From contig OY771587.1 in assembly GCA_963674825.1 (NCBI GenBank), forward strand, positions 2,656,001 to 2,720,000: a stretch of DNA of 64,000 nt. The letters are read 5' to 3'. Within the stretch, counting starts at the first letter, position 1; every line of letters starts with the position of its first letter. Positions 29,411-53,396 of this stretch are shown piece after piece. The notes below the pieces were generated by a model, which was given only the letters and a program-made list of their open reading frames with translations, was not told the origin of the DNA and did not search any database. A program made the translations under genes and the position numbers. The DNA comes from Candidatus Cloacimonadales bacterium (GTDB taxonomy: Bacteria > Cloacimonadota > Cloacimonadia > Cloacimonadales > JAIOQZ01).

Positions 29411-29506
29411 TGCCGTTCAATGCATTACGTCTTGTATGAGAGTTGGATAAAACATAGCTTAATGCGAAAATAATCGGTCTTCGGATCGAAAATTGCCTTA
29501 CATTTC

Positions 29507-29540
29507 AGGAAAGCGGACCTCTGTCCGCTTTCCTTTAAAA
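29507..29540 (+). terminator. rho-independent terminator
   Basis: AGGAAAGCGGAC-ctct-GTCCGCTTTCCT stem-loop followed by TT. Confidence 0.75.
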
Positions 29541-29579
29541 TTCTGGATATGATTAGGATTCATGAGAGTTGGGGGATTT

Positions 29580-32500: not shown

Positions 32501-33032
32501 CTACAAGGTCTCTTCCGAAGCAGATTACGATCATCTGCGTTTCTTCATCGACGATATCCAGATGGGTATGTGGAGCGGTGATACCGGCTGGCAGGAGAAG
32601 GTTTGCCCGGTTACAGATGGAACTCACGCCTTCACTTGGCTCTACACGAAAGATGCGGGTGCGTCGGATGGCGATGACTGCGCCTGGGTCGATGCAATCA
32701 TCTTCCCGCCACACGAAACCTGGAACGCTATCGACACCGAAGAAATGGCGAAGCTCGTGAAGCAGGGTCTGACCAACTACCCGAATCCGTTCAATCCCGA
32801 AACGACCTTTGCCTTCGCGTTGGAAGAGCCGTCGCACGTGTCGCTGGAAATATTCAACATCCGTGGCCAGCGAGTTCGCAAACTGCTCGACGAACGCATG
32901 CAAAACGGCATTCATCATGCTGTATGGCAAGGACGGGACGATACAGGACGCGCTGTTTCATCGGGTGTGTATTTCGCACGGATAATTACTGCTACCGGCG
33001 CTGTTGTGAAGAAGATTGCAATGATCAAGTAG
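29580..33032 (+). CDS. C25 (gingipain-family) cysteine protease with propeptide, Ig-like domains and type-A/FlgD-like T9SS CTD
   Basis: YVLLGGD, SDLYYSALDG, VAVGRMP, catalytic-like SGH and SHGC, VLGDPAM; CTD NYPNPFNPETT; start placed at ATG 29580 after GGGGG. Confidence 0.92.
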   Translation: MRYGITVIILLMACFLAAETIQYDLHFNAPDVVQHRGETLISFDNTMQSGLPGEPTLPYRAVRLMLPPSSTVADITVYREDPIQLEGSWSLFPTQAVRPISKGGDGNYLRDNKVYTSSVSYPSRYYGDVKVDYYRGYGFASVSVTPVEYIPAEGSVTYYSTIRIEIETKPDYRSDILPVSARETVRLDAEKFAENPSMSSRYMVPAMRSSGYEMLIVTSDDYMDDFDPLVELYAQKGIRCQKVTIDEATGSQTGQDDQEKLRNYIIQEYTQNDIEYVLLGGDVDIIQYRGFFCQVESGGIVEDNNIPSDLYYSALDGTWNDDDDNLWGEIGEDDLLPDVAVGRMPFDNHDEFDAMLNKIMMYQTEPVEDELDQPLLVGENLWDDPLTWGGDLIDTIVGECDIAGYTTNGIPDSDPFERLYDRDHGEWSTGELINAINEGHPYIHHSGHSNSSYNMRLMIFQISNNNFANVNGTDHNFTNVYSHGCIAGSFEEEDCIGERMVLIDNFAASYIGNSRYGWFNEGQLEGPSQHLHREYTDALYNDGVRQIGMAHLVSRIMTAPYVNAPGQHEQGALRWCFYDCNVLGDPAMSIWCEQPHEITATFDEPLPIGSTSMQVDVESTDGNAEGIVCTLIQDDEVIGSGITDASGTVVIFFDAPVANTGQTTLYVSGNDILIHQYEVEIAEVEDPWIALLHVDTHDDNNQIPEYEENIYLDITVQNIGQAACSDLTAYLYTDDEYINLAGLNASFSAMASGDSVTSTNAFNFDTSDGIPDQHEALLYLVFVDHPEWSLPFTITFAAPELACDDWAIDHYTSGRSGFLFPGDPNPLYITIGNQGSATSPEISTELTLLNGQATISPYVDTSAPLEGGENVELWFDITPDISTQTGSILTFELEVDAGAYSFTRILEIPAGELWELFDNFTDLPWQFTGEGDWTIDDEGFESNQSARSGDIGDDESSGLTITMEDLRQGTISFHYKVSSEADYDHLRFFIDDIQMGMWSGDTGWQEKVCPVTDGTHAFTWLYTKDAGASDGDDCAWVDAIIFPPHETWNAIDTEEMAKLVKQGLTNYPNPFNPETTFAFALEEPSHVSLEIFNIRGQRVRKLLDERMQNGIHHAVWQGRDDTGRAVSSGVYFARIITATGAVVKKIAMIK

Positions 33033-33053: not shown

Positions 33054-33082
33054 CCCCTTGCCGCGATGCGGTGAGGGGTTTT
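33054..33082 (+). terminator. rho-independent terminator after the C25 protease
   Basis: CCCCTTGCCGC-gat-GCGGTGAGGGG followed by TTTT. Confidence 0.7.
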
Positions 33083-33087
33083 CAATT

Positions 33088-33159
33088 GTAGGGGCAGGTC
33101 TCCGTGCCTGCCCTTCCTGTTTACGGAGAAAACGGGCAATCACAGTGGATGGCCCCTAC
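33088..33159. repeat. GTAG-type REP doublet (REPIN-like)
   Basis: GTAGGGGCAGGTCTCCGTGCCTGCCC (33088-33113) and an inverted partner GGGCAATCACAGTGGATGGCCCCTAC (33134-33159), each with an internal hairpin. Confidence 0.7.
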
Positions 33160-33229
33160 ACCAACCCTGGGTACGCAGAGCTCCTTGAATCTTCAACGCC
33201 CTCATCTCACATGCAACATGATTTTTTAC

Positions 33230-33258
33230 TTGCAAATGATTCGCATGTAGAATATCTT
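33230..33258 (+). promoter_or_regulatory. sigma70 promoter overlapped by a 7-1-7 Fur/Zur-type operator
   Basis: TTGCAA-17 nt-TATCTT; palindrome TGCAAAT-G-ATTCGCA (33231-33245, one mismatch) overlaps the -35. Confidence 0.55.
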
Positions 33259-33264
33259 GGTTTC

Positions 33265-33678
33265 ATGAATCAATGCAATGCTGAAAATGTGCTCGAAAAG
33301 AGCGGGATACGTAAAACGAGACAGCGGATCGATCTGTTGTGGATCATGATCCGCGAGGTATCGTTTTCTGCGAACCAGTTGCAGAAGGATTTGCCGCAGA
33401 TCGATCTCGCGACCATCTACCGGTTTATTCATCTGCTGCAGGAGCATAACATCATCCGTGAGATCGCTTATCTGGATGGACATCAATTCTTTGAATATGT
33501 CTGCGAGCATCACCCACCGCACGGGCACTTTTACTGCGAAAATTGCTGTCGCCTCTTCTGCCTGGCGCCGTTTGATTTCGACCAAAGTTCAATCCTGATC
33601 CGGAATGCGGAAAGCCACCGGATCGACCACATATCGCTCATCATGAAAGGAGTGTGCAGAACATGCCGCGAATCTTAA
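33265..33678 (+). CDS. Fur-family transcriptional regulator (probably Zur)
   Basis: RKTRQR, IDLATIYR, HGHFYCENC and CRTC motifs; upstream of znuA/znuC; the longer ORF extension runs through the REP and terminator. Confidence 0.85.
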   Translation: MNQCNAENVLEKSGIRKTRQRIDLLWIMIREVSFSANQLQKDLPQIDLATIYRFIHLLQEHNIIREIAYLDGHQFFEYVCEHHPPHGHFYCENCCRLFCLAPFDFDQSSILIRNAESHRIDHISLIMKGVCRTCRES

Positions 33679-34583
33679 TGTTTTTTTTCATCGCTTTACT
33701 TCTGCTGGCGTCCTGCTCGACGGATCGTCAGAAAGAAGCCCTGTCCAAACCCATGGTCTATGTCAGCATCGCGCCGCAACAGTACTTCGTCCAGCGTATA
33801 GCCGGTGACCTGGCAGATGTGCGCTTGATGCTTCCATCCGGGTCCAGTCCGGTGACCTATGAGCCTACGATTAAGCAGCAAGTTGAGCTCAAAACCGCCG
33901 CGATCTATTTCCGTATCGGTGTCCCTTTCGAGGAATCATTCCTGGCCAAAGTTGCGGAAGCCGCGCCGGACCTGAAGATTATCGACACACGGAAGGGCAT
34001 ACACTTGCGTGAAACCGAGTCGTTCGAGGATGTCGCATTGCATCTGGGAACGGAAGACGCTGAACACCACGACCACGATCACGAGCATGAGCATGGCGAG
34101 AAGGATCCGCATATCTGGCTCTCACCGATGCTGGTGAAAATCCAGGCGATGACTATCGCGAATGCACTGATCGAACTGATGCCGAATCAGAAGGGTGTTA
34201 TCGAAAAGAATTTGCTCGCTTTCTACAATGATATGGATCTCCTCTCGATCGAGATTACGAAGACACTCGAGCCGATCCAGAATCGCACCATGCTGGTTTT
34301 TCATCCTGCGTGGGGCTACTTTGGCGATCAATTTGGTCTTCAGCAGATACCCATCGAGATTGAAGGCAAAGAGCCGCTGGGCAAGTACACGGTCGAGATC
34401 ATGAATTACGCCCGTGAAAATGGAATCAAGGTCATCTTTGTGCAGAAGCAGTTTGACGAAGCTATTGCGCAAAGCATAGCGAACGAGATCGGTGGGGGCG
34501 TGGTTCCAATCGATCCTATGGCACCGGATTATCTGGAGAACATGCGTAATATCGCTACGACCATCGCGGAGAATATCCGGTGA
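33663..34583 (+). CDS. znuA: zinc ABC transporter substrate-binding lipoprotein
   Basis: Lipobox LLASC, His-rich loop, DPHIWLSP, VFHPAWGYF; AAGGAG RBS before ATG 33663. Confidence 0.88.
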   Translation: MPRILMFFFIALLLLASCSTDRQKEALSKPMVYVSIAPQQYFVQRIAGDLADVRLMLPSGSSPVTYEPTIKQQVELKTAAIYFRIGVPFEESFLAKVAEAAPDLKIIDTRKGIHLRETESFEDVALHLGTEDAEHHDHDHEHEHGEKDPHIWLSPMLVKIQAMTIANALIELMPNQKGVIEKNLLAFYNDMDLLSIEITKTLEPIQNRTMLVFHPAWGYFGDQFGLQQIPIEIEGKEPLGKYTVEIMNYARENGIKVIFVQKQFDEAIAQSIANEIGGGVVPIDPMAPDYLENMRNIATTIAENIR

Positions 34584-35305
34584 AAACAGCTGTCAGTGTT
34601 GAAAACGTTTCCTTTGCCTACAACACACAACGGGTGCTGGAAGATATCGACCTCGATATTGAAACAGGCGAGTTCATTGCGATCGTTGGCCCGAACGGCG
34701 GTGGCAAGACGACCCTCTTGCGGCTGATGCTGGGACTTCTGAAACCGAATCGCGGATCGGTCAGAATAATGGGTAAAGCCCCGGACAAGGCGCATCGGTT
34801 CATCGGTTATGTGCCGCAATACGGCGTGAAATACGAGGATTTCCCGGTGCGCGTTCGTGAAGTGGTGATGACGGGCGGCCTGACTGCCGGTTCTTTTTTT
34901 CCTTTCTGGTCGGCGATGATCAAATCGAAGGCTGACGAGATGCTGGAGAAAATGCAGATCATGGATCTGGCTAACGAGCGCTACGGCGATCTCTCGGGTG
35001 GTCAGAAGCAGCGAACGCTCATCGCACGAGCCTTGATATCCAATCCAGATATCCTATTTCTGGATGAGCCCACGGCCAGCGTTGATATGCGTATGGAGCT
35101 TGGTATCTATAAGCTATTGAAGACCATCGACAAAACGATCGTGCTTGTCACGCATGACATCGGTTTCGTCTCGACCTACGCTGACCGCGTGGCTTGCCTG
35201 AATCGCCGTATCGCGATTCACAAGACCGAAGAAATCAATGCGGATGTCATATCAGGAACCTACCACGACCAGATGGAGATCATCAGTCACCGTTGCGGTC
35301 TGTAA
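34580..35305 (+). CDS. znuC: metal ABC transporter ATP-binding protein
   Basis: Walker A GPNGGGKT, GYVPQ, LSGGQ, LDEPT, VTHD. Confidence 0.88.
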   Translation: MKTAVSVENVSFAYNTQRVLEDIDLDIETGEFIAIVGPNGGGKTTLLRLMLGLLKPNRGSVRIMGKAPDKAHRFIGYVPQYGVKYEDFPVRVREVVMTGGLTAGSFFPFWSAMIKSKADEMLEKMQIMDLANERYGDLSGGQKQRTLIARALISNPDILFLDEPTASVDMRMELGIYKLLKTIDKTIVLVTHDIGFVSTYADRVACLNRRIAIHKTEEINADVISGTYHDQMEIISHRCGL

Positions 35306-37001
35306 TCTCTGGCAAACGATAGACATAGATATGGTAATAGTCTCCCTTGTCCCGTGCGATCGGCGTCAATCCGATCCGGTCCGCATTGCGTATTGGTAGC
35401 GCTGAGAAAAGGTAATCAACTCCCATTTCACGAAGCTTCTTCAGGTTCAATTCACAGGTTGTCGAAGGTAGGGTCTTGCGCAGCCAGTTTTGATCCAGCA
35501 TATGTATAAATACCCTGTCGTCGAAGAGATATAACTGCGATCCCCATTTCTTCATGTAAATCTCGAGCACTTTGTTTTGTCGCATTTCGCCTTGCAGGAT
35601 TTCCACGAAATCATTTTTCAGATGCAGCGGATAAGACGGGCAATATGCGCCCAACGTCCGGTATCCGTTGAAGTTGGCGACCGATGGTGCGAAGCAGAAA
35701 CATCCGATGCGCGTCGTGGTTTTGTCGAACTCTGGTTCGTTATCTTCCAGAAATTGCCCGATCCTGTCAAACTGGTCGGTGGACATTACCTCATTAAAGG
35801 TCGGTTTTTGCCTCCAGGCTTTCAAGCTCGAGAAGCTGTAGTTGATCCCTATCTGGATGAGAAGTACGGTTGTAACAAGGATCATAACCGGTTTTTTCCA
35901 CTTAGAGCGCTGGATGGCGTAGCTCAGGACTATACCGACCAGCAAGTACCATACGGGAGGGGTAAGGAAGTAAAACCGCGAATAGTCGAACCCGAATTTC
36001 ATCCGCATGTAGAGATTGTTTATCGGCTCATACCGGTAGATGGCGAAGATCACGGCACAGAAGAAGATGAAGCTTTCCAGAATTATGACAAGCCTTCGAT
36101 TGGGTGCATCCTTCTTGCGCAACATCACGTATGAGCCGATGACGATGATCGGAAGAAACAAATACTGGTGAAACGAGTGTGCGTGCTGCTGCGATTGCAC
36201 GAAAAACGAAAGAAAGAAATCGGTCATGACGGTGCCCAGATTCTTCGATGCCAGCAGGATTTCGGAGCGGTTGGACGGAATCTTCTCGAAAAAGAGGATC
36301 ACGAAGAACGAGTAGTATACCACGCAGTAAATAGTGAGCATGATCAGCATCGGTGGGATCAGTCGCCAGAAGGGCTTCCTGGCGATTGCTAGCGCAATCA
36401 TGATGAAACCGAGGATCATCAGGATGAAGATGCCGGTCAGAAAGAATCCCGAATACAGGGTGTATAGCACGACGCATAGGTAAGAGATGATGAGGTGCTC
36501 TTTATTCCAGATAGATAAGAATGCCCAGGCGAGAAGGGGAAGTCCCGCGATGGATAATCCACCCTGCGGCCAGAACGGCAGGTAGATATATGCGATCGCA
36601 AGCAATGCGGGTAAAATGCGAGGAACGTCACGCATGAAGAACCTTCGGAGCAGCAGGAAGAATCCGATGAACCCGAGGATGCGATAGACCATCTCGTTGA
36701 TGATGTATCCAGGCAGGAATCCGAATTGCCAGAAAAGTTTCTGAACGGACAGAATCGAGACTCGGAAGATGGGCTCCATGCCAGGGAGATAGTTTTCGGG
36801 CATGTCATCCGTAGGAAAGAACTTTCCGTGGAATCCTCCATCGAAGATACCGAGATAGCTGATCTGATCGAGGTTGTCGAACTGGTTAATCCAGACGTCG
36901 CCTCCTTTGATCAGATAGGGTAGTACATATATCAGAAACAGAACAAAGACGATTGCGAAAACCCAACGGGGCGAGTCGTACCATTTCAATTTATTGGGCA
37001 T
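35283..37001 (-). CDS. DUF6044-like polytopic membrane protein (putative GT-C-type glycosyltransferase)
   Basis: DNLD motif after the first TM helix, about 11 TM segments, C-terminal soluble domain with NGYRTLGAY..YPL and WG.QLYLF. Confidence 0.6.
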   Translation of the reverse strand: MPNKLKWYDSPRWVFAIVFVLFLIYVLPYLIKGGDVWINQFDNLDQISYLGIFDGGFHGKFFPTDDMPENYLPGMEPIFRVSILSVQKLFWQFGFLPGYIINEMVYRILGFIGFFLLLRRFFMRDVPRILPALLAIAYIYLPFWPQGGLSIAGLPLLAWAFLSIWNKEHLIISYLCVVLYTLYSGFFLTGIFILMILGFIMIALAIARKPFWRLIPPMLIMLTIYCVVYYSFFVILFFEKIPSNRSEILLASKNLGTVMTDFFLSFFVQSQQHAHSFHQYLFLPIIVIGSYVMLRKKDAPNRRLVIILESFIFFCAVIFAIYRYEPINNLYMRMKFGFDYSRFYFLTPPVWYLLVGIVLSYAIQRSKWKKPVMILVTTVLLIQIGINYSFSSLKAWRQKPTFNEVMSTDQFDRIGQFLEDNEPEFDKTTTRIGCFCFAPSVANFNGYRTLGAYCPSYPLHLKNDFVEILQGEMRQNKVLEIYMKKWGSQLYLFDDRVFIHMLDQNWLRKTLPSTTCELNLKKLREMGVDYLFSALPIRNADRIGLTPIARDKGDYYHIYVYRLPEITDRNGD

Positions 37002-37002
37002 G

Positions 37003-38127
37003 TCATTTCCTTTCATAGAAACGATGGATCGCTTCGCAAACGCGATCGACATCGCCGAGAGTAAGATTGTAATGCATGGGCAGCCTCAGGATGTGGTTGG
37101 CTGTCTCGATCGTAACCGGTAATTCGTCTCCATCGTACGTGCCGTTCCAGTATGGTGCCAGGTGCAGCGGTTGGTAGTGGAAGGCCGACTGGATGCCTTT
37201 CTCGTGCAGGTAATCGATAAGCTCCCTGCGCTCGACTTCCGATTCGCAGAGAATGAAAAAGGCGTGGCCATTGGGCTGTGTGTTCTGCGGGATGGACGGC
37301 AGATTTTCCGGTGGCAGCACGGATCGCAGGTTTTTCAGGTAGCGGTTGAACAGCGTAAAGCGGTAATTGGTCACGTCTTTCAGCGCGTCCAACTGGGCGT
37401 GCAAAAATGCTGCCTGGAGTTCGCTGGCGAAGTAGTTCGACCCCGGAAGCTGCCATGTGTATGCGGCTACTTTGTTCTCCTCGAACCGGCTTCTATCCGT
37501 GCCGCGATCGCGGATCATGCGCACGCGCTCTATCAGCTCCGGGTGCTGTACGATCACCGCACCGCCTTCACCGCAATGGATGTTCTTGGTTTGGTGAAAG
37601 CTCAGGGTGGAAATATCGCCGTAGGTTCCCAAGAGCTTGTCGTGATACTGTGCGTCGATTCCGCAAGCGTTGTCTTCCACAAGGTAGATACCATGGCGGT
37701 CGCAGATTTCGCGGATGCGGATCATCTCACACGCGATACCGCTGTAATGGACTGCGATGATGGCTTTGGTGCGCTCGGTGATCAGCGCTTCGATCATATT
37801 CTCATTAATGTTACGAGTGTCTTCACGGATTTCGCACCACACCGGCTGCACGCCAAGTCTGACAAACGCCGTGGCGGTTCCTACGTGGGTGAACGACGGT
37901 AGGATTACCTCGTCACCAGATTTCATCTGCATGGCGAGAGCTGCGATCTCCAGCGCAGCGCTACACGACGAAGTAAGGAGCGCGATTGGGGCACCATACA
38001 TATCTTTGAGCCGTGCTTCACAGCTCAGGCCGAAGTCGCCGTTTCCGCAGAAGTAGTCCGAGGCGAATACCTGCTGGATGTTCAGTTCTTCCTGTCCGGT
38101 TATCAGCGGTCGGTTGAAAACAATCAC
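37003..38127 (-). CDS. wecE: dTDP-4-amino-4,6-dideoxygalactose transaminase (DegT/WecE family)
   Basis: LLTSSCSAALEIAA, SFHQTKNIHCGEGG (PLP lysine), GTDRSRF, YTWQLPGS, FHYQPLH; GTG start overlaps the upstream TGA. Confidence 0.85.
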   Translation of the reverse strand: MIVFNRPLITGQEELNIQQVFASDYFCGNGDFGLSCEARLKDMYGAPIALLTSSCSAALEIAALAMQMKSGDEVILPSFTHVGTATAFVRLGVQPVWCEIREDTRNINENMIEALITERTKAIIAVHYSGIACEMIRIREICDRHGIYLVEDNACGIDAQYHDKLLGTYGDISTLSFHQTKNIHCGEGGAVIVQHPELIERVRMIRDRGTDRSRFEENKVAAYTWQLPGSNYFASELQAAFLHAQLDALKDVTNYRFTLFNRYLKNLRSVLPPENLPSIPQNTQPNGHAFFILCESEVERRELIDYLHEKGIQSAFHYQPLHLAPYWNGTYDGDELPVTIETANHILRLPMHYNLTLGDVDRVCEAIHRFYERK

Positions 38128-38813
38128 GATGAACCTCCCCATATGTATCGCGGACTGGCATTACCCACGTTCAACAGCAGATCGAGGATACTCACACGGT
38201 GCTCGAAATCGCCGTATGGCTGTGGGTAGATGGGATACTCGGGATACTGGAAGAACTCGACACCAATTCCCTCTTTCTCGAAGAGTGCGACATCCAGATA
38301 ATTTTTTGCTGCTGGGCCAGAAACATAGATATCTGCCTCCAGCTCTCTGGCGATGGATAACAGACGCAGGTTACGATCCTCAGAGACGGTAAAATCCTCA
38401 TCACCGTGAAAAGTGGTTTCGATACCGAGTAGTACGCTGATTTTCTTGATAAAGTAGCGGTTGAGCTCGTAAAGGTTGTCCCAGCTTCGATCCAGGTACA
38501 CGTCTTGCAACAGATCGTTGAAATGATCGAATCGCCTGCATGTATGATAGTTATGGCATATTGTCATGTAATGCTTCTGCTGCCAGTCGGTTCCGTCAAT
38601 CTTTGCTTGTGCTATCGATGTTGAGCGATCAGCGCGCACCGGCACCGTGAGCCACAACAAGCCTTCACGTGTCTTGATTAGATTGCGGTTACGCCAATCG
38701 CGCGTGGTGTATTGTACCGAATCGAGGAAAACGAAATCGTCTACGTCATGGATGATGTGGAAATAGCCCTTCCATGGGATGTAATTGGACTGGAGAATCG
38801 CGACCTTCTTCAT
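38124..38813 (-). CDS. WbqC-family protein
   Basis: ILQSNYIPWKGYF, DWRNRN, WLTVP, YVSGPAAKNYLD, SILDLLLN. Confidence 0.9.
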   Translation of the reverse strand: MKKVAILQSNYIPWKGYFHIIHDVDDFVFLDSVQYTTRDWRNRNLIKTREGLLWLTVPVRADRSTSIAQAKIDGTDWQQKHYMTICHNYHTCRRFDHFNDLLQDVYLDRSWDNLYELNRYFIKKISVLLGIETTFHGDEDFTVSEDRNLRLLSIARELEADIYVSGPAAKNYLDVALFEKEGIGVEFFQYPEYPIYPQPYGDFEHRVSILDLLLNVGNASPRYIWGGSS

Positions 38814-39466
38814 CGTGCCTTCCTGAGAAATCTGGCCGGGTTTCCGACGCGTATATCCATTGTATCCATGTCTGACAACAGCACCGATCCCATACCAAGT
38901 GTGGAGTATTTTTTGAGGTGCAGACCTTCGCGCACGGTGGCATTCAATCCGATGTGAACACCATCATCAATCACAACGCGTGAGCTGATGCAGCTTTGTG
39001 CGGCAAAGTGACAGTAATCGCCGACGACGGAGTCATGACCGATGGATGCGTTAACCATTACAAGGCAACATTTACCTAGGACTGCTTCCGACGAAATAGA
39101 AGCGTTGGGCATTACGACGGTACCGCTTCCAAGCCTTGCGCTGGGTGCGACATACGCCATGGGATGAACGAAAGTGAGGAGTTGTTCGTCTGGAATGTTC
39201 AGCTTATCAAAGAGGGCGATCCGACCTTTTTGTCCATCGATGCGGTAGATGGTGTACACGAAATGGTAGCCCTCGTCGATGAACGCGGCAATCTCTCCTG
39301 TTGTTCCCAGCACGGGCCAGGAGCCGATTGTGTCGCCTTCCTGTTGGCGGTCGTTCAAGAATCCGGCAACGATGGGGTCGTCATCGTGACGATGGGCATG
39401 GGTGATGGCGTCGGCGATCACGGTTCCATTCCCGATACCGCCGATTATAATCACTCGTTTAGGCAT
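38810..39466 (-). CDS. NeuD/PglD-type sugar acyl/acetyltransferase (hexapeptide repeat)
   Basis: N-terminal IIGGIGNG Rossmann-like part, HP motif, SIGHD, hexapeptide repeats, GNPAR. Confidence 0.85.
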   Translation of the reverse strand: MPKRVIIIGGIGNGTVIADAITHAHRHDDDPIVAGFLNDRQQEGDTIGSWPVLGTTGEIAAFIDEGYHFVYTIYRIDGQKGRIALFDKLNIPDEQLLTFVHPMAYVAPSARLGSGTVVMPNASISSEAVLGKCCLVMVNASIGHDSVVGDYCHFAAQSCISSRVVIDDGVHIGLNATVREGLHLKKYSTLGMGSVLLSDMDTMDIRVGNPARFLRKAR

Positions 39467-39469
39467 GAT

Positions 39470-40324
39470 TTACTCCGATTCGATTTTGAAATGCGGCTTG
39501 AACCGGCACAGGAAGCGCTTATCCTTTATCAGCAATGAGAGGATGAATCCAATAACCGCGAGTGTTCTGAGAAACCGGTTCTTTGTGCAGGAATAAATAG
39601 TGACGGTTTTCGCTATTCCCAGCAGACCTAACACCTGATGAGGTATTCTCCCGAAGACAAAGATTCTCGTCATGGCCAATGCAAGGAGCTTTCGTATAGA
39701 ATAGGTACTGCGATTACCGGGACGCGACTCGCGTTCGAGCTTGATTGTCGCCCAACTGCATCCGCTGGCGTGCAATTGGCTCAGCAGCGTTCCTGGCTGG
39801 ATGGGCTTACGGAAGATCGGATCCAGGCAATCGCGCCGTAGGATGCGGAAAACCCCGGCACAGCGAGGATTGCGAATGGTTGTAAGCCGGTTTGACAGCA
39901 GATAGAAGCCAATGGACGCGAGGTTGCGCCGCAGATTCTGGTTAGACTGCGGTCTGCTGGCGATGACCATGTCGATCTGCGAATCGAGGATTCGCTGGTA
40001 GAGAACCTCAATGTCCTCGGGCTTGTCCTGAAGGTCGCTGTCCATGACCACGCAGTATTTTCCTCGGGCGCGGGTCAGTCCGGCTGCGATTGCGTTCGAT
40101 TGCCCATAATTCCTGATCAGCTTGATTAGCCGGATATGGTTGTATTGTTCCATTTGCTGGCGGATGATCTGAACCGAGTCGTCGCGACTTCCGTCATCGA
40201 CGAGTAGTATTTCGTATTCGAGTTCCATTCGGGTCATGGCTTCGCTGGTTCTCCTGATGAACTCGGTGATGAACCGCGAGCCGTTATAAACAGGTGATAT
40301 TACCGATATCTGGATGGATTTCAT
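39470..40324 (-). CDS. GT2 polyprenol-phosphate glycosyltransferase (GtrB/ArnC-like)
   Basis: ISPVYN, VDDGSRD, RNYGQSNAIAAGL, MDSDLQD; C-terminal hydrophobic segment. Confidence 0.85.
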   Translation of the reverse strand: MKSIQISVISPVYNGSRFITEFIRRTSEAMTRMELEYEILLVDDGSRDDSVQIIRQQMEQYNHIRLIKLIRNYGQSNAIAAGLTRARGKYCVVMDSDLQDKPEDIEVLYQRILDSQIDMVIASRPQSNQNLRRNLASIGFYLLSNRLTTIRNPRCAGVFRILRRDCLDPIFRKPIQPGTLLSQLHASGCSWATIKLERESRPGNRSTYSIRKLLALAMTRIFVFGRIPHQVLGLLGIAKTVTIYSCTKNRFLRTLAVIGFILSLLIKDKRFLCRFKPHFKIESE

Positions 40325-41271
40325 TGTGCGCCTCCCGCGAGAATGTCCTGTTTTCGTATGTTATCGTGGATGGAGAGTATTCCGCCGATCAGTGCGGGGA
40401 TACCAGCCATAATCAGGAAATTGAGAATCGATATGGCGATTAGATCGGCAGGAAGGATGTTCAGTCTCTGGTAGAAGAAGATAAAAGCGCTTTCTCGGAT
40501 ACCGAAACCGCTGGTTGTTAGCGGAATCAGCGCGATTGTCTGGATAAGTGGCACAAAACAAAGGTGTTGTATAAAAGGCAGTGGGTGCCCGAATAATAAA
40601 AAAAGGAAATGGATGTTCAGGATGCCGAAAAGCTGCACGAGCAGGACAAAACCAATACCCCGAATCAAATACGTGCGGTTTGCCTGTGCCAGCAGATTCG
40701 CAAGCCTCCGGAATTTCAGCATGATTCTTTGCGGTAGATTACCACCGTTGCCTTCTTTGACACTGACCTTACGGACAATCATGAAAATAGCTATCAGGCC
40801 TGTGATAATAATGACGAGGGAAATCCGTAAAATCCAAATCCATTCGATGTCGTTTAAGAAAAGGCTTGCGAGCAGCGCCAGCGTGAATAGGCAGAAAACC
40901 CCCATGAATTTACCCAGGATTACCGACCCGATCGCGGCTTTCGTATCGATTATGCGCATCAGGATGTAGGCGCGAATGAGCGCGAAGCCGTCAGCGGAAG
41001 GCAAGAGCACACCCCAGAAGATCGAAACAAAGTTGATACGAATAAGGCGCGATAGTGGGTAGTTAACCCCAAGTGCATTCAACATGTAATGCCAGCGGAA
41101 TCCGGCGAGAACGGGTATGCATAGAATCGTGATCAGCAGGCAAGGTATCAGCCACACAAAGTTGCCGTCTGTAATCCGAATCTCGCTGAAGGTGACGCGA
41201 TATCGAATTACAAGAAAAGTGAGTAGTGCTACTGCGATCAGCAACTGAATCCATTTAAAAGCCTTTTTCAT
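40321..41271 (-). CDS. LPG-synthase-TM/UPF0104 flippase-like membrane protein
   Basis: RW motif, LPS..G, IPLTTSGFGIRE; about 8 TM segments. Confidence 0.8.
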   Translation of the reverse strand: MKKAFKWIQLLIAVALLTFLVIRYRVTFSEIRITDGNFVWLIPCLLITILCIPVLAGFRWHYMLNALGVNYPLSRLIRINFVSIFWGVLLPSADGFALIRAYILMRIIDTKAAIGSVILGKFMGVFCLFTLALLASLFLNDIEWIWILRISLVIIITGLIAIFMIVRKVSVKEGNGGNLPQRIMLKFRRLANLLAQANRTYLIRGIGFVLLVQLFGILNIHFLFLLFGHPLPFIQHLCFVPLIQTIALIPLTTSGFGIRESAFIFFYQRLNILPADLIAISILNFLIMAGIPALIGGILSIHDNIRKQDILAGGAQ

Positions 41272-42173
41272 TACCGCATGATCTCCGCCATACGCTGTAG
41301 CGAACGGGCCATCGGCTCAGCGATCGCTTCGTCTAGCACGACCTCATTCTTCTCGTTTTCAAGTGCGTCGATTGCCAGATCGAGATGATTCAGCTTCATG
41401 TCCTCGCACTGCATGCGGGGACTGAGCGGCACCAGCGATTTTTCCGGGAATCTGTGCCGAAGCTGCTCGTATAGGCCGATCTCTGTTCCGATAATGCAGC
41501 GATCATTGTGCTGCACATAATCGATCATCTGACTGGTAGAGCAGACCACATCCGCGAACTTGCATACGTCCAAGCCACATTCAGGATGCACCAGAAGAGT
41601 ATAGTCCGGATATTTCTCTTTCATTGCCTGGGCTTCTTCCAGCTCAATCTGATGATGAACGTAGCAATAGCTATCGAACATGATCAGCTTGCGGCCTGTT
41701 TTATATTCTACCCAGCGGCCGATGTTGCGGTCGGGAATGAAGATGATCTCCTTATCCTCGGGAATACGGCTAACCAGTTCCACACAGTTCGCTGACGTAC
41801 AGGTGATGGTGCTTTCCGCCTTGAGTGTCGCAGGTGAATTCACATAGCAGACGACTTCCGCGTCGGGATGCTCATCGCGTAGCTTTCTGAGGCTAAAAGG
41901 GTTCTGCATGTTCGCCAGTCGGCAATCCGCGGTGGGATGCGCCATCAGTACTTTCTTCTCCGGGTTGAGCAGCTTGGCTGTCTCTCCCATGATGCGGATG
42001 CTACACACCAACAGCATCTTCTCGTTTCGCGTGGCAGCGACTTTTGCCATTTGCAGTGAATCGCCCACGTAATCCGCTACCTCCTGAATGCTGTAGTCCA
42101 CGTAGTTATGCGCCATGACGAAGCAATCTTTCTTCTGTTTCAGCTCGATAATCCGGTTCTGTTTCGTGTCCAC
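41271..42173 (-). CDS. nadA: quinolinate synthase-like [4Fe-4S] protein
   Basis: AHNY, GDS, ETAKLLNP, YVNS, CTSAN, HPEC, IGTE; three cluster cysteines (ADC, SYC, MQC). Confidence 0.85.
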   Translation of the reverse strand: MDTKQNRIIELKQKKDCFVMAHNYVDYSIQEVADYVGDSLQMAKVAATRNEKMLLVCSIRIMGETAKLLNPEKKVLMAHPTADCRLANMQNPFSLRKLRDEHPDAEVVCYVNSPATLKAESTITCTSANCVELVSRIPEDKEIIFIPDRNIGRWVEYKTGRKLIMFDSYCYVHHQIELEEAQAMKEKYPDYTLLVHPECGLDVCKFADVVCSTSQMIDYVQHNDRCIIGTEIGLYEQLRHRFPEKSLVPLSPRMQCEDMKLNHLDLAIDALENEKNEVVLDEAIAEPMARSLQRMAEIMR

Positions 42174-42182
42174 GAGTACTCC

Positions 42183-43454
42183 TTATTCATAATGATTGCC
42201 GATCTTCGATCGAATAAACGGTGTTTTTCCACCCTTCGTTTTTTCCAATTCATCTACGATTTCAAAATCTATCTTCATGCTGCTGCCGATTCGCTTACGC
42301 AAACCCTGTTCCAGCGCGTCCTGAGATACTTCGGAATATTGATCGTCCACTACCAGGCGAAAAGTGATATGATCCAGTGCGTCCTGTACGCATTGTGATA
42401 CAATCACGCCTTTTGCCTGATCTACCGAGTGCGACATCACCGCGCCCAGGATGCGCCCGTCCGGCGTGATGATGTGGTCGCAAGCTTTTCCCTGTATCTC
42501 TTTCACCTTGCGAAATGGTCTTCCGCAAGCACAGTTTCCAACTTCCAGCGAAACCAGATCGCGCGTTTTGTAGCGAATCAATGGCATGGAATAGTTATAA
42601 TAGCTGGTTCCGATGAGCCTCCCATCCTCGACTTCCATGAAGCTGAAATCTTCGATCAGGTGCAGCGATCCGTGCTCGCACTGGGAGATCATCGCGCTGC
42701 ATTCGTGCATGGAGTGGAAATCGAACACGGTGGTCTTGTAGAGCGACTCAATCTGCTGCCTGCGGTTTTCGGAGAGCTTCTCACCATATGTGATAACACT
42801 TTTTGGAGAGGGGATCGAGAGTCCGGCATCGGATGCGAATTGCGCGATCATCATGATGTCGAACGGGAATCCGATTATGAAGCGTGGCGGTTTTTTATGC
42901 AGGTATTGGATCAGTTTCAGCGCTGATTCTTTTTGCAGCCTGTTGGAATCGAACCGAATAACGTTGTAAAGCTTATTATGCTGGAAATCGTTCTCCTTGA
43001 AATAGTAACTCTGCACCGATAACGTGCGAATACCGGGACGATAGCCTGCCCAGCCGAAGCTCCGCAGCAGTGCGGCGATCTTGTTTGCCTGAATGGCGTT
43101 GCTCAGCACAAAATGAAGCGGCGTTCCGGTGGAACCGCTGGTGGAGTCCCATGTGATGCCATAGCGTTTAGCCTGGTCGGAGAGCAAGTCCTCCTTTCGA
43201 GTGCGGACAGTTTCTTTGTCCAGGGTGGGAATCCGGTGCATATCCTCGATTCCCTTAAAGGTTGCGGTATCCAAGTCGATCTCGCTGAATAATTGCTTAT
43301 AGTACGGGACATGCGCTCCGGCGTATCGAATGAGGCGGATCAATTGCTCGTTCTGCATAGCTCGCAGTTCCTCCGCACTCCGGAATTGGGATTTCCGGTA
43401 GTATCGTAGCCGTTTCAGGACCGCGAAGGGGATTTGCAGGATCGATTTTTCCAT
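42183..43454 (-). CDS. phenylacetate-CoA ligase/CapK-like adenylating enzyme
   Basis: VPYY, TSGSTG P-loop, MPLIRY, GK..FI C-terminus. Confidence 0.85.
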   Translation of the reverse strand: MEKSILQIPFAVLKRLRYYRKSQFRSAEELRAMQNEQLIRLIRYAGAHVPYYKQLFSEIDLDTATFKGIEDMHRIPTLDKETVRTRKEDLLSDQAKRYGITWDSTSGSTGTPLHFVLSNAIQANKIAALLRSFGWAGYRPGIRTLSVQSYYFKENDFQHNKLYNVIRFDSNRLQKESALKLIQYLHKKPPRFIIGFPFDIMMIAQFASDAGLSIPSPKSVITYGEKLSENRRQQIESLYKTTVFDFHSMHECSAMISQCEHGSLHLIEDFSFMEVEDGRLIGTSYYNYSMPLIRYKTRDLVSLEVGNCACGRPFRKVKEIQGKACDHIITPDGRILGAVMSHSVDQAKGVIVSQCVQDALDHITFRLVVDDQYSEVSQDALEQGLRKRIGSSMKIDFEIVDELEKTKGGKTPFIRSKIGNHYE

Positions 43455-43455
43455 G

Positions 43456-44346
43456 TCAGGTCCGGATCATTTTCTGGATATGTTCGTAGCGTTCGATGGT
43501 GTTTCTTGCTTTCTTGAGCATGGGGGGGCCGATGAAGCGTCCGTTAATCACAGCAACGCCTTTCTCTTGTGACTTCGCCAGATCTGTCAGGCGCACCATC
43601 TCCAGTGCTTCCGTGTATTCATCTGCCGAGGGAGTGAAGTGCCGGTGCGCAGGCTCGATCTCCTTCGGGTTCAAGAGCAGCATGCCCTCGAAACCGAGCT
43701 TGCGCGCGATATCGAGGTTGTATTCCAAGTTCTCCATGTTGTGGACATCGACATGAACGGTGTCGATGGGGATGATCCCATGTGAACGTGCGGTGATGGC
43801 TATCTTCGCACGGGGATAAAACAAGCTCTGCGCTTCTGGGTCATGCACGCCATGAAGATCGGTGATGAAGTCTTCGCAGCCGAACGCGATCGCGATGATG
43901 CGCTCCGATGCGCGGCAGATAGAGTCGAGATTAACGACAGCGCCACAGGTCTCGATGATGGGGACAAGCTTGAGCTTGCCCGATTCGATCTGATTTTCGA
44001 TCTCGACAACGTGCATGAGGTGGTCGATGAAAAAGATATCCTTGGCGGTGTAGGTTTTTGGGAAGACGAACCCGGTGATAGCCAGCGGGGCGAAGGTCTT
44101 GACTTCGTCGTTGAGAAACTTGCTATCGACGTCGTTCAGCCGGATGAAGATATGTTTGCCGGTGAAGATTCCTTCTTCTATAAGCTCTTTGCAGAGTCCC
44201 CTCGCCTTGATTTTGTTTGCATCCGGTGTAACCGAATCTTCCATATCGAGGATAACTGCGTCTGTATCGGTAGTAGCGGCTTTACGAAGCAGGCGCTCGT
44301 TGTGTCCCGGTACGAATAGCATTGAACGCAATATATAATCACACAC
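43456..44346 (-). CDS. CitE/malyl-CoA lyase-like (HpcH/HpaI aldolase-citrate lyase family)
   Basis: RSMLFVPG, ILDMEDSV, IIET, FGCEDF, GFEGM; GTG start. Confidence 0.88.
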   Translation of the reverse strand: MCDYILRSMLFVPGHNERLLRKAATTDTDAVILDMEDSVTPDANKIKARGLCKELIEEGIFTGKHIFIRLNDVDSKFLNDEVKTFAPLAITGFVFPKTYTAKDIFFIDHLMHVVEIENQIESGKLKLVPIIETCGAVVNLDSICRASERIIAIAFGCEDFITDLHGVHDPEAQSLFYPRAKIAITARSHGIIPIDTVHVDVHNMENLEYNLDIARKLGFEGMLLLNPKEIEPAHRHFTPSADEYTEALEMVRLTDLAKSQEKGVAVINGRFIGPPMLKKARNTIERYEHIQKMIRT

Positions 44347-44806
44347 GCCTACCTCCTTTTGGGATCAGAACGTTTCGCACAAAGGAGAGTACTTCCGCGC
44401 CATTCTGATTGAACGCTCGCGTACGAACCCGGACGATTCCGCGGTCAGATTTACTGTGTGAGGCACGGACATCGAGTATTTCGGAGGAAGCATGAATGGT
44501 GTCACCGATAAATACTGGCGCGGTATGGCGAATCTCCTCGTAATCGAGGTTCGCGACAGCCTTTCCGCTGATATCACGCACAGTCATGCCCACGACGACA
44601 GAAAAAACGAGCGTTCCAACTACCACGCGCTCTTTGAATTGCGTTGTCGATGCGTATTCGCTATCGAGGTGAAGCGGGTGGTGATTCATGGTCAAAAGAC
44701 AAAAGAGATTGTTATCGCTTTCGGTGATTGTTTTACCAGGATAATGATCGATCATCTCACCATTTGTAAAATCTTCCAGAAACCTGCCATAATCGTTTGC
44801 TTTCAT
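44339..44806 (-). CDS. MaoC-family (hotdog) dehydratase
   Basis: GRFLEDF, KTITESDN, MNHHPLH, PVFIGDT, RGIV, NQNG. Confidence 0.88.
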   Translation of the reverse strand: MKANDYGRFLEDFTNGEMIDHYPGKTITESDNNLFCLLTMNHHPLHLDSEYASTTQFKERVVVGTLVFSVVVGMTVRDISGKAVANLDYEEIRHTAPVFIGDTIHASSEILDVRASHSKSDRGIVRVRTRAFNQNGAEVLSFVRNVLIPKGGRRV

Positions 44807-44942: not shown

Positions 44943-46898
44943 TCAGGATTGCTGATTTCTGGTGAGATAATCCCTTCCTCGCTGGGTTATAACGCGATAA
45001 TCTCCTCTACGAACCGTGACGCCCTCACGATCGAATTTATTGATTAACAGGAGACAGATTTTGCGATTTCCGTCGATCAGATCACGGAAAGTTGCGACGG
45101 TTGCGCCTTCTTCGTTCTCGAGAAGATGTTCGAGCAGAATACGTCTGCTGTCGTCAACGATACTGGCGTGGATAAAATTTGCGTCCAGGTTGTACGCTTT
45201 GTTTCTGAATACCAGCAGTTGCAGGATCTGCTTGAGCTTAAGCTCGGGGATGCCCTGGTCGAGAGCGGCTGGCACCATTTGTGACCATAATGGCGTCTGC
45301 ATCTGGCAATCGAGAAGGAATTTTTCGATGAAGTCGATCTGCTGGATATCGCGAGGTGTGAGCTTGACATCGTGCGACTTCAATGCCCAGGTGTGTCCGA
45401 TGCGCTTGAGCTCGCTCTCTGCTTCAAGCTGCTCCAGCACGAGCTGCATGACCGCTTCGGTGGTGGAATCGCGATGGACACCGAAGATACCCATCAATTC
45501 CTCGAACGATCGTCCGCCCTCATCCAGCGGATTCCGTTTGTGATAAGTATTCAGATAGCGGATGATCTTCAGCCGAAGCTTGTCGTATCGCTTACGTTCC
45601 ATCAGGTACGCGACGCTCGGTGTGGAAAGCAGCATGATATCTTCAGGCATATCGCCGGCAATGGCCTTGTCGATCTCAGTACCTGAGATGTTCAGGAGAT
45701 TGGATAGCTCTTCGCTGGTCATGGGGGAGAGGCGTTTGCGGACTTCCGCGGCGATGAGCTCGGGAATGCCGCCCTGTACAACTTCTTTGAGCTTATGGAT
45801 CAGCTCTTCCGGGCGTCTGCGGTGATGCAGTGGATGCGCGTCGATAACTTCACCGCCACCAAGCGTAAGGTCGCTGGAGCTGTTACGGATAACAAATTTA
45901 TCGCCATGCATCAGCACGGCAGGTGCTTCCAGGTGGATCTGAACGATTGCAGTGTCGCCGCCGTCGAGGCGGTCTTTGTCGATGAGGTGGACGCGTGCCT
46001 GCCCTGCGTAGGTTCCCAGCAGGAATATGACCTGCGACCAGAGGTTAAGCGGTTTGGCATGATCGTAAAGCTTAAGCCGGGCGTCGATCATGCGCGTGGA
46101 AGGCAGGATGCGGTCGCTGACCAGCATGCCGCGCTTGTATTGGTCGATATCGAGACCGACCAGATTCATGGAAGCACGGTCACCGGTTGATATTCGCTGC
46201 ACTTCGCCACCGTGGCGTTCAAGCCTTCTGGCACGTAGTTTGTCACCGGTCGGGAGCAGATAGACGTTTGCTGAACGGTTCAGTTCTCCGCTGATCACTG
46301 AACCATTGACGATGGTTCCGTGGCCGGGAATGTTGAAAATACGGTCGATATACATACGGAAAATTTCACCTGATTCCCGTTCCGGGATATCCTGTGATAT
46401 TGCTTCCAGATGCTCGATCAATTCTGGGATGCCCTCGCCGGTTTTCGCGGAGACCTTCACGATAGGTGCGTTTTCGAAGGCGGTATCTTCCACCAACTCA
46501 CGGATATCGATTTCAGCGAACTCGAGCAATTCCTGATCGACCAGGTCTATCTTGGTAAGAACGATGATACCCTTTTCGATGCCGAGGGTGCGGATGATCT
46601 GAAGATGTTCGCGTGTTTGTGGCATCACGCCGCTGTCTGCCGCGATGACCAGCAATACAAAATCGATTCCGCTTGCGCCGGAGACCATCGTATTGACGAA
46701 GTCCGCGTGGCCCGGGACATCGACGATGCCGAGGCTGTTTCCGCTGGGGAGATCGAGGTGACTGAATCCCAGATGGATGGTGATTCCGCGCAATTGCTCT
46801 TCTTTATGGGTGTCGCAGTTGAAGCCGGTGAGCTGCTCGATGAGTGTGGTTTTTCCGTGGTCGATATGACCGGCTGTCCCCATGATCAGGTGTTTCAT
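44943..46898 (-). CDS. selB: selenocysteine-specific elongation factor
   Basis: GTAGHIDHGKT, RGITI, DVPGH, TKID, DRIF, TLGGGEV; C-terminal winged-helix region. Confidence 0.95.
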   Translation of the reverse strand: MKHLIMGTAGHIDHGKTTLIEQLTGFNCDTHKEEQLRGITIHLGFSHLDLPSGNSLGIVDVPGHADFVNTMVSGASGIDFVLLVIAADSGVMPQTREHLQIIRTLGIEKGIIVLTKIDLVDQELLEFAEIDIRELVEDTAFENAPIVKVSAKTGEGIPELIEHLEAISQDIPERESGEIFRMYIDRIFNIPGHGTIVNGSVISGELNRSANVYLLPTGDKLRARRLERHGGEVQRISTGDRASMNLVGLDIDQYKRGMLVSDRILPSTRMIDARLKLYDHAKPLNLWSQVIFLLGTYAGQARVHLIDKDRLDGGDTAIVQIHLEAPAVLMHGDKFVIRNSSSDLTLGGGEVIDAHPLHHRRRPEELIHKLKEVVQGGIPELIAAEVRKRLSPMTSEELSNLLNISGTEIDKAIAGDMPEDIMLLSTPSVAYLMERKRYDKLRLKIIRYLNTYHKRNPLDEGGRSFEELMGIFGVHRDSTTEAVMQLVLEQLEAESELKRIGHTWALKSHDVKLTPRDIQQIDFIEKFLLDCQMQTPLWSQMVPAALDQGIPELKLKQILQLLVFRNKAYNLDANFIHASIVDDSRRILLEHLLENEEGATVATFRDLIDGNRKICLLLINKFDREGVTVRRGDYRVITQRGRDYLTRNQQS

Positions 46899-52800: not shown

Positions 52801-53396
52801 ACGAAATGACAAGTGCCGCTTTTGCTGACAGCAGTGCATCCGATTACACCAACTTTGCCAGTGGCGACGTTCTTCCCATGGGCAGCGATGTCCTGATCGA
52901 AGCCTATACCGGTGGAATCGATACCAACTACAATTCTGGCTACGAAGTGACACTTCACTACATCATCAATGGCGGAACCGAGCAAACGACAGTGCTGAAC
53001 TGGCAGGGTAGCGATGCGGAATATTCCTGGTGGCGAATCGGCCTCGTGAATGGCGACACCGTCAGTGATTACGATCAGGTTGAATTCTGGATCACAGCAA
53101 CCGACTACAACGGCCCCGTCTTCACCGATGATAATGGTGGCGAGAACTACACCGTCAGCGTTGGTCAGGCAGCACCTCCGGCAGCACCGCAGGATGTCAT
53201 GATCACCGTCGTCGGAACCGATGTCCAGATATCCTGGGCAGCCGTAACCGGCGCGACGAGCTATCGTCTGCAGTCTTGCGATGCACCGGATGGAACCTTC
53301 ACGAACGTAACGGTTACTACCAATACAAGCGTGACCATCACCAATGGCGCGGGTTCTGCCGATATGAAGTTCTATCGCGTTAAGGCAATGAATTAA
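49806..53396 (+). CDS. secreted multidomain carbohydrate-binding protein (DOMON/CBM9-like, Ig-like, three CBM20-like repeats, Fn3-like C-terminus)
   Basis: Signal peptide; repeated VTF.VN...VQGSV.PLNW..G and YKF...WE...NR.F motifs; C-terminal ISWAAVTGATSY...FYRVKA. Confidence 0.7.
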   Translation: MIKRMIPLLWLMSLAVAISAFTPVIDGTKDAAWGATPTEATFTTMQPTEFNLEDGCYVTDDDNYIYFGIPTDNDPWGDGNAIHLHLSIDLRNTAAGGTGDAWGSQVQYGQPYLPDYDIIMQWNTNDQNVGYTGFMTWNGTGWDQVQLDPANIAGGGGQFTEIAVPRSMFDNVELDENLNISLWQRPAWNKNNANACCPADAEFPSDWGDGAGGTQTTQFAYTVSTQLADTTAPRMSSAVQDGPSTVRVTFNEPMGSGAQVAGNYTIDNSASIDAVSMISASVYDLTVSGLVAGTEYELTATSAIMDVSNNPIDPSYNSDTFTASAFADVTFTINDNSHIYENIKVKGNFDEWALHQAYDDGTHGDPTAGDYSWTCVVENVPEGSWEWGAIEDDGSQYGIWLIDGPNLQFTVDNTGAVTGDVSYDIAGGIAQDVDVTFRVNIGSLDVTGVSVQGSVLPLNWTPGSNLMADPENDKIYEATITFPAGSNFDVDYKFTYESSVRDWNWEDVDNRTFTIDDTQISMVLDVNYWNNNEVSELTAVSFMDSTTSDYTNFQSGDVLGAGSNIQIEVEADAIDVNNNSGFSLMLHYRVNLGLEQSKAFTWESNGETASYWRVALNYGAEISDDDNVLFRIEGTDYNGPTVEDDNGGSNYEVSLGSSGTQQDVDVTFTFNLGTSDAIEVGLVGTVAPLSPLGSDNLMVDDNGDKIYTKTVTFPAGSPYAVSYNYARNLPETRSWQIEPSISRSFNLDDVTGTMDLGVEYWEGVAVSELTDVFFLDNETSVYSNFASGGSVDTGSDIQIEAQVEGVDANANSDFQVTLYYHVNSGELQSKTFGWASNYEGNSWWHVMLENGVEVNDGDDVSFYIEATDYNGPVITDDNDGSSYTVSVLGATTSQDVTVTFSINVGALNADSISVQGSVAPLNWIAGSTPMTDEDGDRTYTVDVLFPAGSPFTVEYKFTRETPATREWAWEYIGNRSFQIQDAESTQVLDLDYWNLNEVHEMTSAAFADSSASDYTNFASGDVLPMGSDVLIEAYTGGIDTNYNSGYEVTLHYIINGGTEQTTVLNWQGSDAEYSWWRIGLVNGDTVSDYDQVEFWITATDYNGPVFTDDNGGENYTVSVGQAAPPAAPQDVMITVVGTDVQISWAAVTGATSYRLQSCDAPDGTFTNVTVTTNTSVTITNGAGSADMKFYRVKAMN

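Follow-up and report, generated by a model that had tools for sequence, protein, structure and literature searches.

A diverged second NadA protein in a predicted amino-sugar glycosylation operon of the Cloacimonadota

The stretch of DNA described here, referred to as the window, comprises 64,000 nucleotides of contig OY771587.1 and is part of the single-contig 3.89 Mb genome of a Candidatus Cloacimonadales bacterium, whose proteins have named relatives almost entirely from the Cloacimonadota. It harbors a ten-gene operon in which a second, diverged copy of nadA, the quinolinate synthase gene of nicotinamide adenine dinucleotide (NAD) synthesis, stands among genes predicted to make, acylate and transfer an amino sugar. 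The best explanation, given a probability of about 0.6, proposes that the operon enzymes assemble a 4-amino-6-deoxyhexose with an N-acyl group in the cytoplasm, that this sugar would be exported on polyprenyl phosphate to an extracytoplasmic acceptor, and that the second protein, NadA2, would be a dedicated, NAD-independent [4Fe-4S] tailoring enzyme, making or modifying a small dicarboxylic acid that a CapK-like ligase adenylates. This role is proposed because the linkage between NadA2 and CapK is invariant. As far as we know, a function of NadA is established for NAD synthesis only, and no report of this operon or of a NadA outside that pathway was found in the open-access literature, subscription papers being outside the scope. 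A review matching NadA paralog and polysaccharide was set aside, as NadA in the matched part is the neisserial adhesin.

NadA2 and the housekeeping NadA

Two NadA genes are present in the genome. The housekeeping copy (C1:1076614-1077534) carries the motif GVRFMAE and lies among housekeeping genes, and the only matches over cut-off for nadC (C1:1639075) and nadB (C1:3304725) in the genome are both outside the window. The first-pass annotation, made from the letters of the window, was therefore right in finding neither nadB nor nadC there, and the housekeeping set that it proposed to look for does exist elsewhere, so that the operon nadA is not the sole copy. NadA2 is 41% identical to the housekeeping protein and passes the NadA cut-offs (PF02445, 329.9 bits; NF006878, 335 over 294; TIGR00550, 286 over 263). 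Among 241 NadA sequences, 89 form a single NadA2 clade with a FastTree support of 1.0, nested among the Cloacimonadota housekeeping NadAs, and a quick IQ-TREE analysis of 54 chosen rows recovers it (20 rows) with a Shimodaira–Hasegawa-like approximate likelihood ratio (SH-aLRT) of 99. The phylogeny that had been suggested thus places NadA2 in its own clade, apart from housekeeping orthologs. The clade is compact, since a profile search over 1.84 billion cluster representatives gave a single full-length NadA2 representative, at 474 bits versus 371 for the rest.

The catalytic set of NadA is retained in this clade. The cluster cysteines C84, C170 and C256 are kept in 89, 89 and 88 of the 89 sequences, H22, Y24, D38, M62, Y110, N112, S127, H173, H196, E198 and T213 in all of them, and S39 in 86. 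The active-site His, Tyr, Asp, Ser, Glu and Thr residues align with those of Thermotoga maritima NadA, presumably with the active-site roles generally assigned to them. Six other positions are conserved in housekeeping sequences and changed in NadA2: F61 (kept in 0/89 versus 149/149), V59 (1/89 versus 149/149), D122 (0/89 versus 145/149), G168 (10/89 versus 148/149), L42 (3/89 versus 149/149) and L151 (8/89 versus 149/149), the changes including F61I, V59I and D122T. Among 150 representatives of NadA clusters at 50% identity, 144 are aligned at this phenylalanine position, F61, and 138 of these retain it. All six adjoin catalytic or cluster residues in sequence and may shape the pocket. The three cysteines, the HNY and HPE motifs and the stretch SIRIMGE (at the place of GVRFMAE), pointed out before, are indeed present; as a signature SIRIMGE holds in part, because S58 and G63 vary within the clade and the fixed residues are I59 and I61 alone (consensus G-I-K-I-M-A-E).

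The predicted NadA2 model overlays NadA structures at 1.2-1.6 Å, the best with a template modelling (TM) score of 0.95 and a root-mean-square deviation of 1.2 Å. Compared with the quinolinate synthases of T. maritima (4P3X) and Pyrococcus horikoshii (5KTM/5KTP series), NadA2 shares the three-domain fold, the cysteines, the active-site residues and the equivalog score; it differs in being a second copy with six substitutions at near-invariant positions, always found in a glycosylation operon and kept where nadC, and usually nadB, is absent. Structures of NadA with itaconate, citraconate and citrate exist, according to their entry titles. The ratio of nonsynonymous to synonymous substitution rates (dN/dS) is 0.07-0.19 in 21 unsaturated of 24 within-genus pairs, nadC-less pairs included, and NadA2 is therefore under purifying selection. 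As a separate observation, the NadA-family clusters P0296, P0314, P0355 and P0356 have changes at Tyr24, Glu198 and Ser39, which suggests from their alignment further repurposed NadA paralogs outside the NadA2 clade.

Organization and conservation of the operon

The operon consists of ten open reading frames (ORFs), all on the minus strand, reading from 44806 to 35283 in the order given below. Family labels come from Pfam and NCBIfam profile searches of the proteins; CoA stands for coenzyme A, GT2 for family 2 glycosyltransferase and GT-C for the C-type glycosyltransferase fold.

44339..44806, minus: MaoC-type (R)-hydratase, 155 aa (PF01575, PF19315), closest to itaconyl-/mesaconyl-CoA hydratases
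43456..44346, minus: CitE-type acyl-CoA C-C lyase of the malyl-/citramalyl-CoA lyase family, 296 aa (PF03328)
42183..43454, minus: CapK-like adenylate-forming ligase of PaaK/F390-synthetase type, 423 aa (NCBIfam matches below cut-off)
41271..42173, minus: NadA2, a diverged second [4Fe-4S] protein of the quinolinate synthase family, 300 aa, GTG start (PF02445)
40321..41271, minus: flippase-like membrane protein, 316 aa (LPG_synthase_TM PF03706 / TIGR00374)
39470..40324, minus: GT2 glycosyltransferase of ArnC/polyprenyl-phosphate type, 284 aa (PF00535)
38810..39466, minus: hexapeptide-repeat sugar N-acyltransferase, NeuD/PglB/VioB-like, 218 aa (PF00132, PF17836)
38124..38813, minus: WbqC-family protein, 229 aa (PF08889)
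37003..38142, minus: WecE-type aminotransferase acting on deoxythymidine diphosphate (dTDP)-4-keto-6-deoxyglucose, likely start GTG at 38127 (NF008687)
35283..37052, minus: DUF6044 membrane protein with predicted GT-C fold, likely start ATG at 37001 (PF19510)

From maoC downward, the junctions are an overlap of 8 nt, gaps of 1 (citE/capK) and 9 (capK/nadA2), an overlap of 1 between nadA2 and the flippase-like gene (TAATG at 41273-41269), an overlap of 4, a gap of 3 and again an overlap of 4 (acyltransferase/wbqC). The wbqC/wecE overlap is 4 when the GTG at 38127 is taken and 19 with the longest ORF, and wecE and the DUF6044 gene are separated by a gap of 1 from the ATG at 37001, or overlap by 50 with the longest ORF. 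The order, strand and junctions described in the first-pass annotation (overlaps or gaps under 10 nt, with the nadA stop overlapping the flippase start) are all borne out. Promoter and terminator scans of the operon were at chance level (8 versus 11.5 and 8 versus 9.2 expected). The G+C content at third codon positions is 0.50-0.69, resembling that of neighbouring genes and of the housekeeping nadA (0.67), and so gives no sign of recent acquisition.

In a phylum sample of 232 genomes, NadA2 is found in 34 belonging to five families (32 full-length at at least 52% identity, one partial and one frameshifted); 48 weaker matches are taken as a number only. The same 34 genomes carry CapK at at least 53% identity, and 8 others have only CapK relatives of 39-43%. 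All 33 relative loci read hold the operon, its gene order unchanged over whatever length of contig is available, and the operon is not there at two housekeeping NadA control loci (48-50% identity). The gene-neighbourhood check that had been proposed therefore shows a conserved order, and its conservation over five families rules out chance adjacency. In every locus read nadA2 directly follows capK, and it lies outside the operon in none of the 33.

Loss of nadA2 is less frequent than that of its operon partners: maoC-citE is lost in 4, wecE in 3, and the flippase-like gene and the acyltransferase in 1 each. The maoC-citE pair is wholly absent from genomes G001 and G035 and stands at other loci in G022 and G152. 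In G022 it moved together with the acyltransferase to a separate locus, which links these three genes, and the flippase-like gene, missing from the operon of G182, is thus not strictly required. At loci L142:10638, L163, L166:6573 and L176, an opposite-strand AAA_14/DUF4143 gene or its remnant is inserted, in several lineages, between capK and nadA2, the order being otherwise intact.

Probable uncoupling from NAD synthesis

The distribution of the NAD genes argues against a role of NadA2 in NAD synthesis. Of the 34 carriers, 26 possess a further NadA as well as nadC and 8 lack both; NadA2 as the sole NadA was never found together with nadC. In those 8 genomes, 5 of which are at least 93% complete, NadA2 is the sole NadA, and 7 of them are without an intact nadB. 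In G040 and G155, nadC and the housekeeping nadA are absent between the usual flanking gene and nadB on one contiguous contig, nadB being truncated in the former and intact in the latter; these two sites are exempt from the concern that one missing contig could remove the adjacent nadC-nadA-nadB genes together. In genus g61 the NAD trio is absent from 9 of 10 genomes, and 3 of those 9 keep NadA2. Among weak matches resembling quinolinate phosphoribosyltransferase in nadC-less genomes, the two loci read encode IMP-dehydrogenase-like proteins as judged from their sequences. The gene nadX was found in none of the five nadC-less carriers examined. Because nadC tracks the housekeeping NadA and the deletions are contiguous, NadA2 is unlikely to serve NAD synthesis.

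Twelve carriers (G143-G145, G156, G159, G160, G166, G168, G171, G182, G190 and G229) use as housekeeping enzyme a long-type NadA encoded next to nadC/nadB. Gain of this long-type NadA operon may have freed the ancestral short NadA for recruitment.

A probable lipid-linked glycosylation layout

The model of the DUF6044 protein (predicted local distance difference test score, pLDDT, 90.3) has a GT-C fold, as predicted from its Foldseek matches, which, as listed to rank 34, are all GT-C-type transferases (best E value 3.7e-06; TM 0.4-0.5 to AftD, STT3, PglB and ArnT). The family has matches in Bacillus subtilis, where the protein is presumably YkoS, and no papers on DUF6044 were found in the open-access literature. 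PMC5836110 describes YkoS as a predicted GT-C whose partner is the GT-A protein YkoT and whose target is unknown. The best NCBIfam matches of the operon GT2, both far under cut-off, are ArnC, which transfers 4-deoxy-4-formamido-L-arabinose to undecaprenyl phosphate, and PgfS, and the flippase-like protein is of TIGR00374 type, not GtrA/ArnEF. Together, the GT-C protein, the ArnC-like GT2 and the flippase-like protein would be laid out as a system that decorates an acceptor with single lipid-linked sugars.

This putative layout of GT2, flippase-like protein and GT-C resembles that of the three-component systems GtrABC/ArnCEFT, YkoT-YkoS and CsbB-YfhO. The operon differs from them in its LPG-synthase-TM type flippase-like gene, at the place of GtrA, and in adding its own WecE, WbqC, acyltransferase, CapK, CitE, MaoC and NadA2. 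Since lpxC is present in the genome, lipopolysaccharide is one candidate acceptor for the sugar. Large secreted-looking proteins encoded at 27629-33032 and 49806-53396 of the window are possible GT-C acceptors too; the first two of them end alike, in a C-terminal YPNPFNPET-motif domain resembling a sorting signal.

Acyl-group enzymes and sister modules

WecE exceeds the NF008687 cut-off (429.6 bits over 375), and rmlA- and rmlB-like genes lie elsewhere in the genome; the hexapeptide acyltransferase comes just under that of TIGR03570 (159.9 bits, cut-off 160.8). The WbqC-family protein, which we take to be a putative aminoacyl (glycyl) transferase, matched only WbqC clusters in an Atlas search, and nothing on WbqC function was found in the open-access literature. 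In Escherichia coli O121 and Shigella dysenteriae 7, VioA/WbqC (WbnG) and an acetyltransferase make a 4-(N-acetylglycyl)amino sugar. Those modules share with the operon the trio of aminotransferase, WbqC and hexapeptide acyltransferase, whereas their loci are Wzx/Wzy O-antigen clusters not known to carry CapK, CitE, MaoC, NadA or GT-C.

MaoC reaches 152 bits with RipB_Ich (cut-off 340), and its best solved relatives are mesaconyl-CoA/beta-methylmalyl-CoA dehydratases. The CitE-type protein is below cut-off for the citE profile and for RipC_Ccl (116 bits, cut-off 375), its solved relatives being CitE, malyl-CoA lyase and CLYBL. According to PMC12290011, Ich acts as itaconyl-CoA isomerase/mesaconyl-C4-CoA hydratase, and Ccl as citramalyl-CoA lyase. 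Ich, of MaoC fold, is thus the best NCBIfam relative of the operon MaoC, and Ccl, of CitE fold, is among those of CitE. In contrast to the Ict-Ich-Ccl itaconate degradation pathway, the operon proteins score far below cut-off, no CoA-transferase was found among the ten ORFs, and the context is biosynthetic, not degradative.

The CapK-like ligase has no Pfam match, and its NCBIfam matches of PaaK/F390/FlxY type are under cut-off; the PaaK equivalog TIGR02155 gives 60 bits against a cut-off of 646, although the fold family is related and the alignment matches solved structures of PaaK and AjiA1 type. PaaK-type ligases act on aromatic acids. No open-access papers were found on CapK as adenylate-forming, and none joining malyl, O-antigen and MaoC. 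A complex prediction of CapK with NadA2 scored 0.00, which is no verdict either way. Residue 249 of CapK (M/L for H/Q), considered as a NadA2-linked pocket change, was rejected, as four CapKs without NadA also have L.

A metagenome scan with the CapK alignment, in which 80 of 191 loci were kept, places the operon among related modules. Loci of the NadA2-linked CapK clade have nadA2 wherever the contig extends far enough. Modules with sister CapKs hold GT2 and an aminotransferase, often with MaoC-CitE, an acyltransferase, WbqC and a PMT-type GT-C, and no NadA2. The module is therefore older than NadA2, which joined it once, directly behind capK. Scanning of unlabelled ORFs in these loci (108 chosen and 17 more) revealed recurring ATP-grasp amino-acid ligases, alanine-dehydrogenase-like proteins, Ala and Asp/Glu racemases and nucleoside diphosphate (NDP)-hexose 2,3-dehydratases, enzymes that NadA-less modules carry near capK; the variable part of the modules would so appear to supply small amino or hydroxy acids. 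At L205:13326-14492, on a 3.5 Mb contig, a long-type NadA lies convergent after a sister module (wbqC-GT2-acyltransferase-capK-wecE-612 aa), and may be a housekeeping gene placed there by chance or an independent association.

Proposed function and alternatives

The current model proposes that WecE aminates dTDP-4-keto-6-deoxyglucose, a step well supported at family level, and that the hexapeptide transferase, WbqC and the CapK-like ligase would attach acyl or aminoacyl groups. GT2 would then attach the sugar to the lipid, the flippase-like protein would move it and the DUF6044 protein would transfer it, an architecture backed by the predicted folds. A C4/C5 diacid of the malate/citramalate-maleate/citraconate kind would come either from CitE and MaoC or from central metabolism. 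The relatives of MaoC and CitE, and the itaconate, citraconate and citrate named in the NadA entries, make an Fe-S step of hydro-lyase or isomerase type the first choice: NadA2 would hydrate, dehydrate or isomerize the diacid, which carries a minority of the total weight and is possible rather than probable. A smaller share goes to condensation on an enamine made by the operon. The broader view, that an enzyme of quinolinate-synthase fold was recruited from NAD metabolism to a different reaction, giving an undescribed surface-sugar acyl group placed by a GT-C, is held at slightly under an even chance.

Several results weigh against this model. NadA2 is still above the quinolinate synthase equivalog cut-offs. 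It is kept without a CitE ortholog in G001 and G035 (best match 34%), so that CitE and MaoC are not obligatory suppliers, and CapK relatives of 55-57% identity occur in MaoC-CitE modules without NadA (L177, L180, L181), so that CapK need not take a NadA product; these two are the main findings against the first choice of chemistry. The nadA2 gene carries a frameshift in G022, and in G002 it is split along with other genes. The 8 nadC-less carriers come from four genera, three of the genomes have a completeness below 90%, and nadC, nadA and nadB lie side by side in these families, so that the counts are not independent. PncB was found in none of the five nadC-less carriers examined (the control matched 8/14); a TfrA-like flavoprotein, a relative of NadB, is present in nadC-less carriers, and an unrecognised NAD route may exist there.

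It could be argued that NadA2 is a dedicated quinolinate synthase, and that CapK adenylates its quinolinate, or a pyridine dicarboxylate closely resembling it, to give a pyridine-acyl amide on the amino sugar. The intact active site, the equivalog scores and the PaaK-type ligases of aromatic substrates among the solved relatives of CapK agree with this, as do the intact nadB of G155 after loss of nadC and the housekeeping nadA, and the presence of nadB in all 4 carriers without operon maoC-citE. A pyridine carboxylate needs iminoaspartate, however, and most nadC-less carriers are without an intact nadB, with no nadX among those examined; moreover, close CapK relatives occur where there is no NadA, and the fixed substitutions beside catalytic positions suggest an altered specificity. 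This reading is accordingly considered unlikely, and a C4/C5 diacid is likelier than quinolinate because nadB is so often absent. The proposal of the first-pass annotation that NadA was repurposed is supported, and strengthened by the nadC-less carriers, its pyridine option fitting less well than its other one, a different dicarboxylic acyl group. CitE-MaoC as a substitute for NadB, supplying iminoaspartate, was kept as a minor option only: no carrier lacking both was seen, so the idea fits the pattern, but only 2-4 genomes underlie it, and there are modules with MaoC-CitE and no NadA.

NadA2 might instead act later, with the acylated sugar nucleotide or the lipid-linked sugar as its substrate, for instance by closing a ring in an N-acyl-aminoacyl side chain or by dehydrating that chain. 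Such a step would suit its single addition to an older module in which MaoC, CitE, CapK, acyltransferase and WbqC were in place before, and its survival of CitE loss. This reading is rather improbable, given that the model closely overlays closed NadA structures with no sign of a new domain, that the known NadA pocket is small and that nadA2 invariably comes right behind capK. Least probable, and already disfavoured, is the view of NadA2 as redundant in the NAD pathway, or as a passenger that translational coupling keeps in the operon. The nesting of NadA2 among housekeeping NadAs, the 26 carriers whose nadC could pass its product to NAD, and the frameshifted copy speak for it; against it stand the lack of any carrier with NadA2 alone beside nadC, the purifying selection where nadC is gone, the confinement of NadA2 to the operon and the more frequent loss of its partners.

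Neighbouring genes

A fur-znuA-znuC run (window 33058-35305), with no adjoining permease gene, overlaps the DUF6044 gene convergently by 23 nt, and the same arrangement is found in the three other genomes of the genus. In genera g29/g44 (L123, L124, L127, L258), a HypB/CobW-type GTPase gene lies upstream of maoC, together with a membrane protein that by eye resembles a nickel transporter. Neighbours concerned with metal handling are thus seen in two lineages, which may be coincidence. The genome also encodes a second SelB-like protein (G000:C1:1971875-1973662), 35% identical to that of the window selB at 44943-46898.

Significance

The recruitment of NadA is the surprising part of this system, as the glycosylation system is otherwise of known type. 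Beyond what had been noted before are the GT-C fold predicted for DUF6044 and the occurrence of the MaoC-CitE-CapK-WbqC-WecE module also without NadA. The NadA2 clade, with its catalytic set intact and six substitutions, offers a natural and direct way to explore what other reactions the Fe-S scaffold supports and on which residues NadA specificity depends. CapK-like ligases and WbqC proteins are common yet poorly characterised in glycan loci, and the operon is a compact, expressible set from which their products could be learned. Finally, the fold assignment gives DUF6044 a predicted place among GT-C transferases, and a surface modification is predicted in about 1/7 of the sampled genomes of a largely uncultured phylum.

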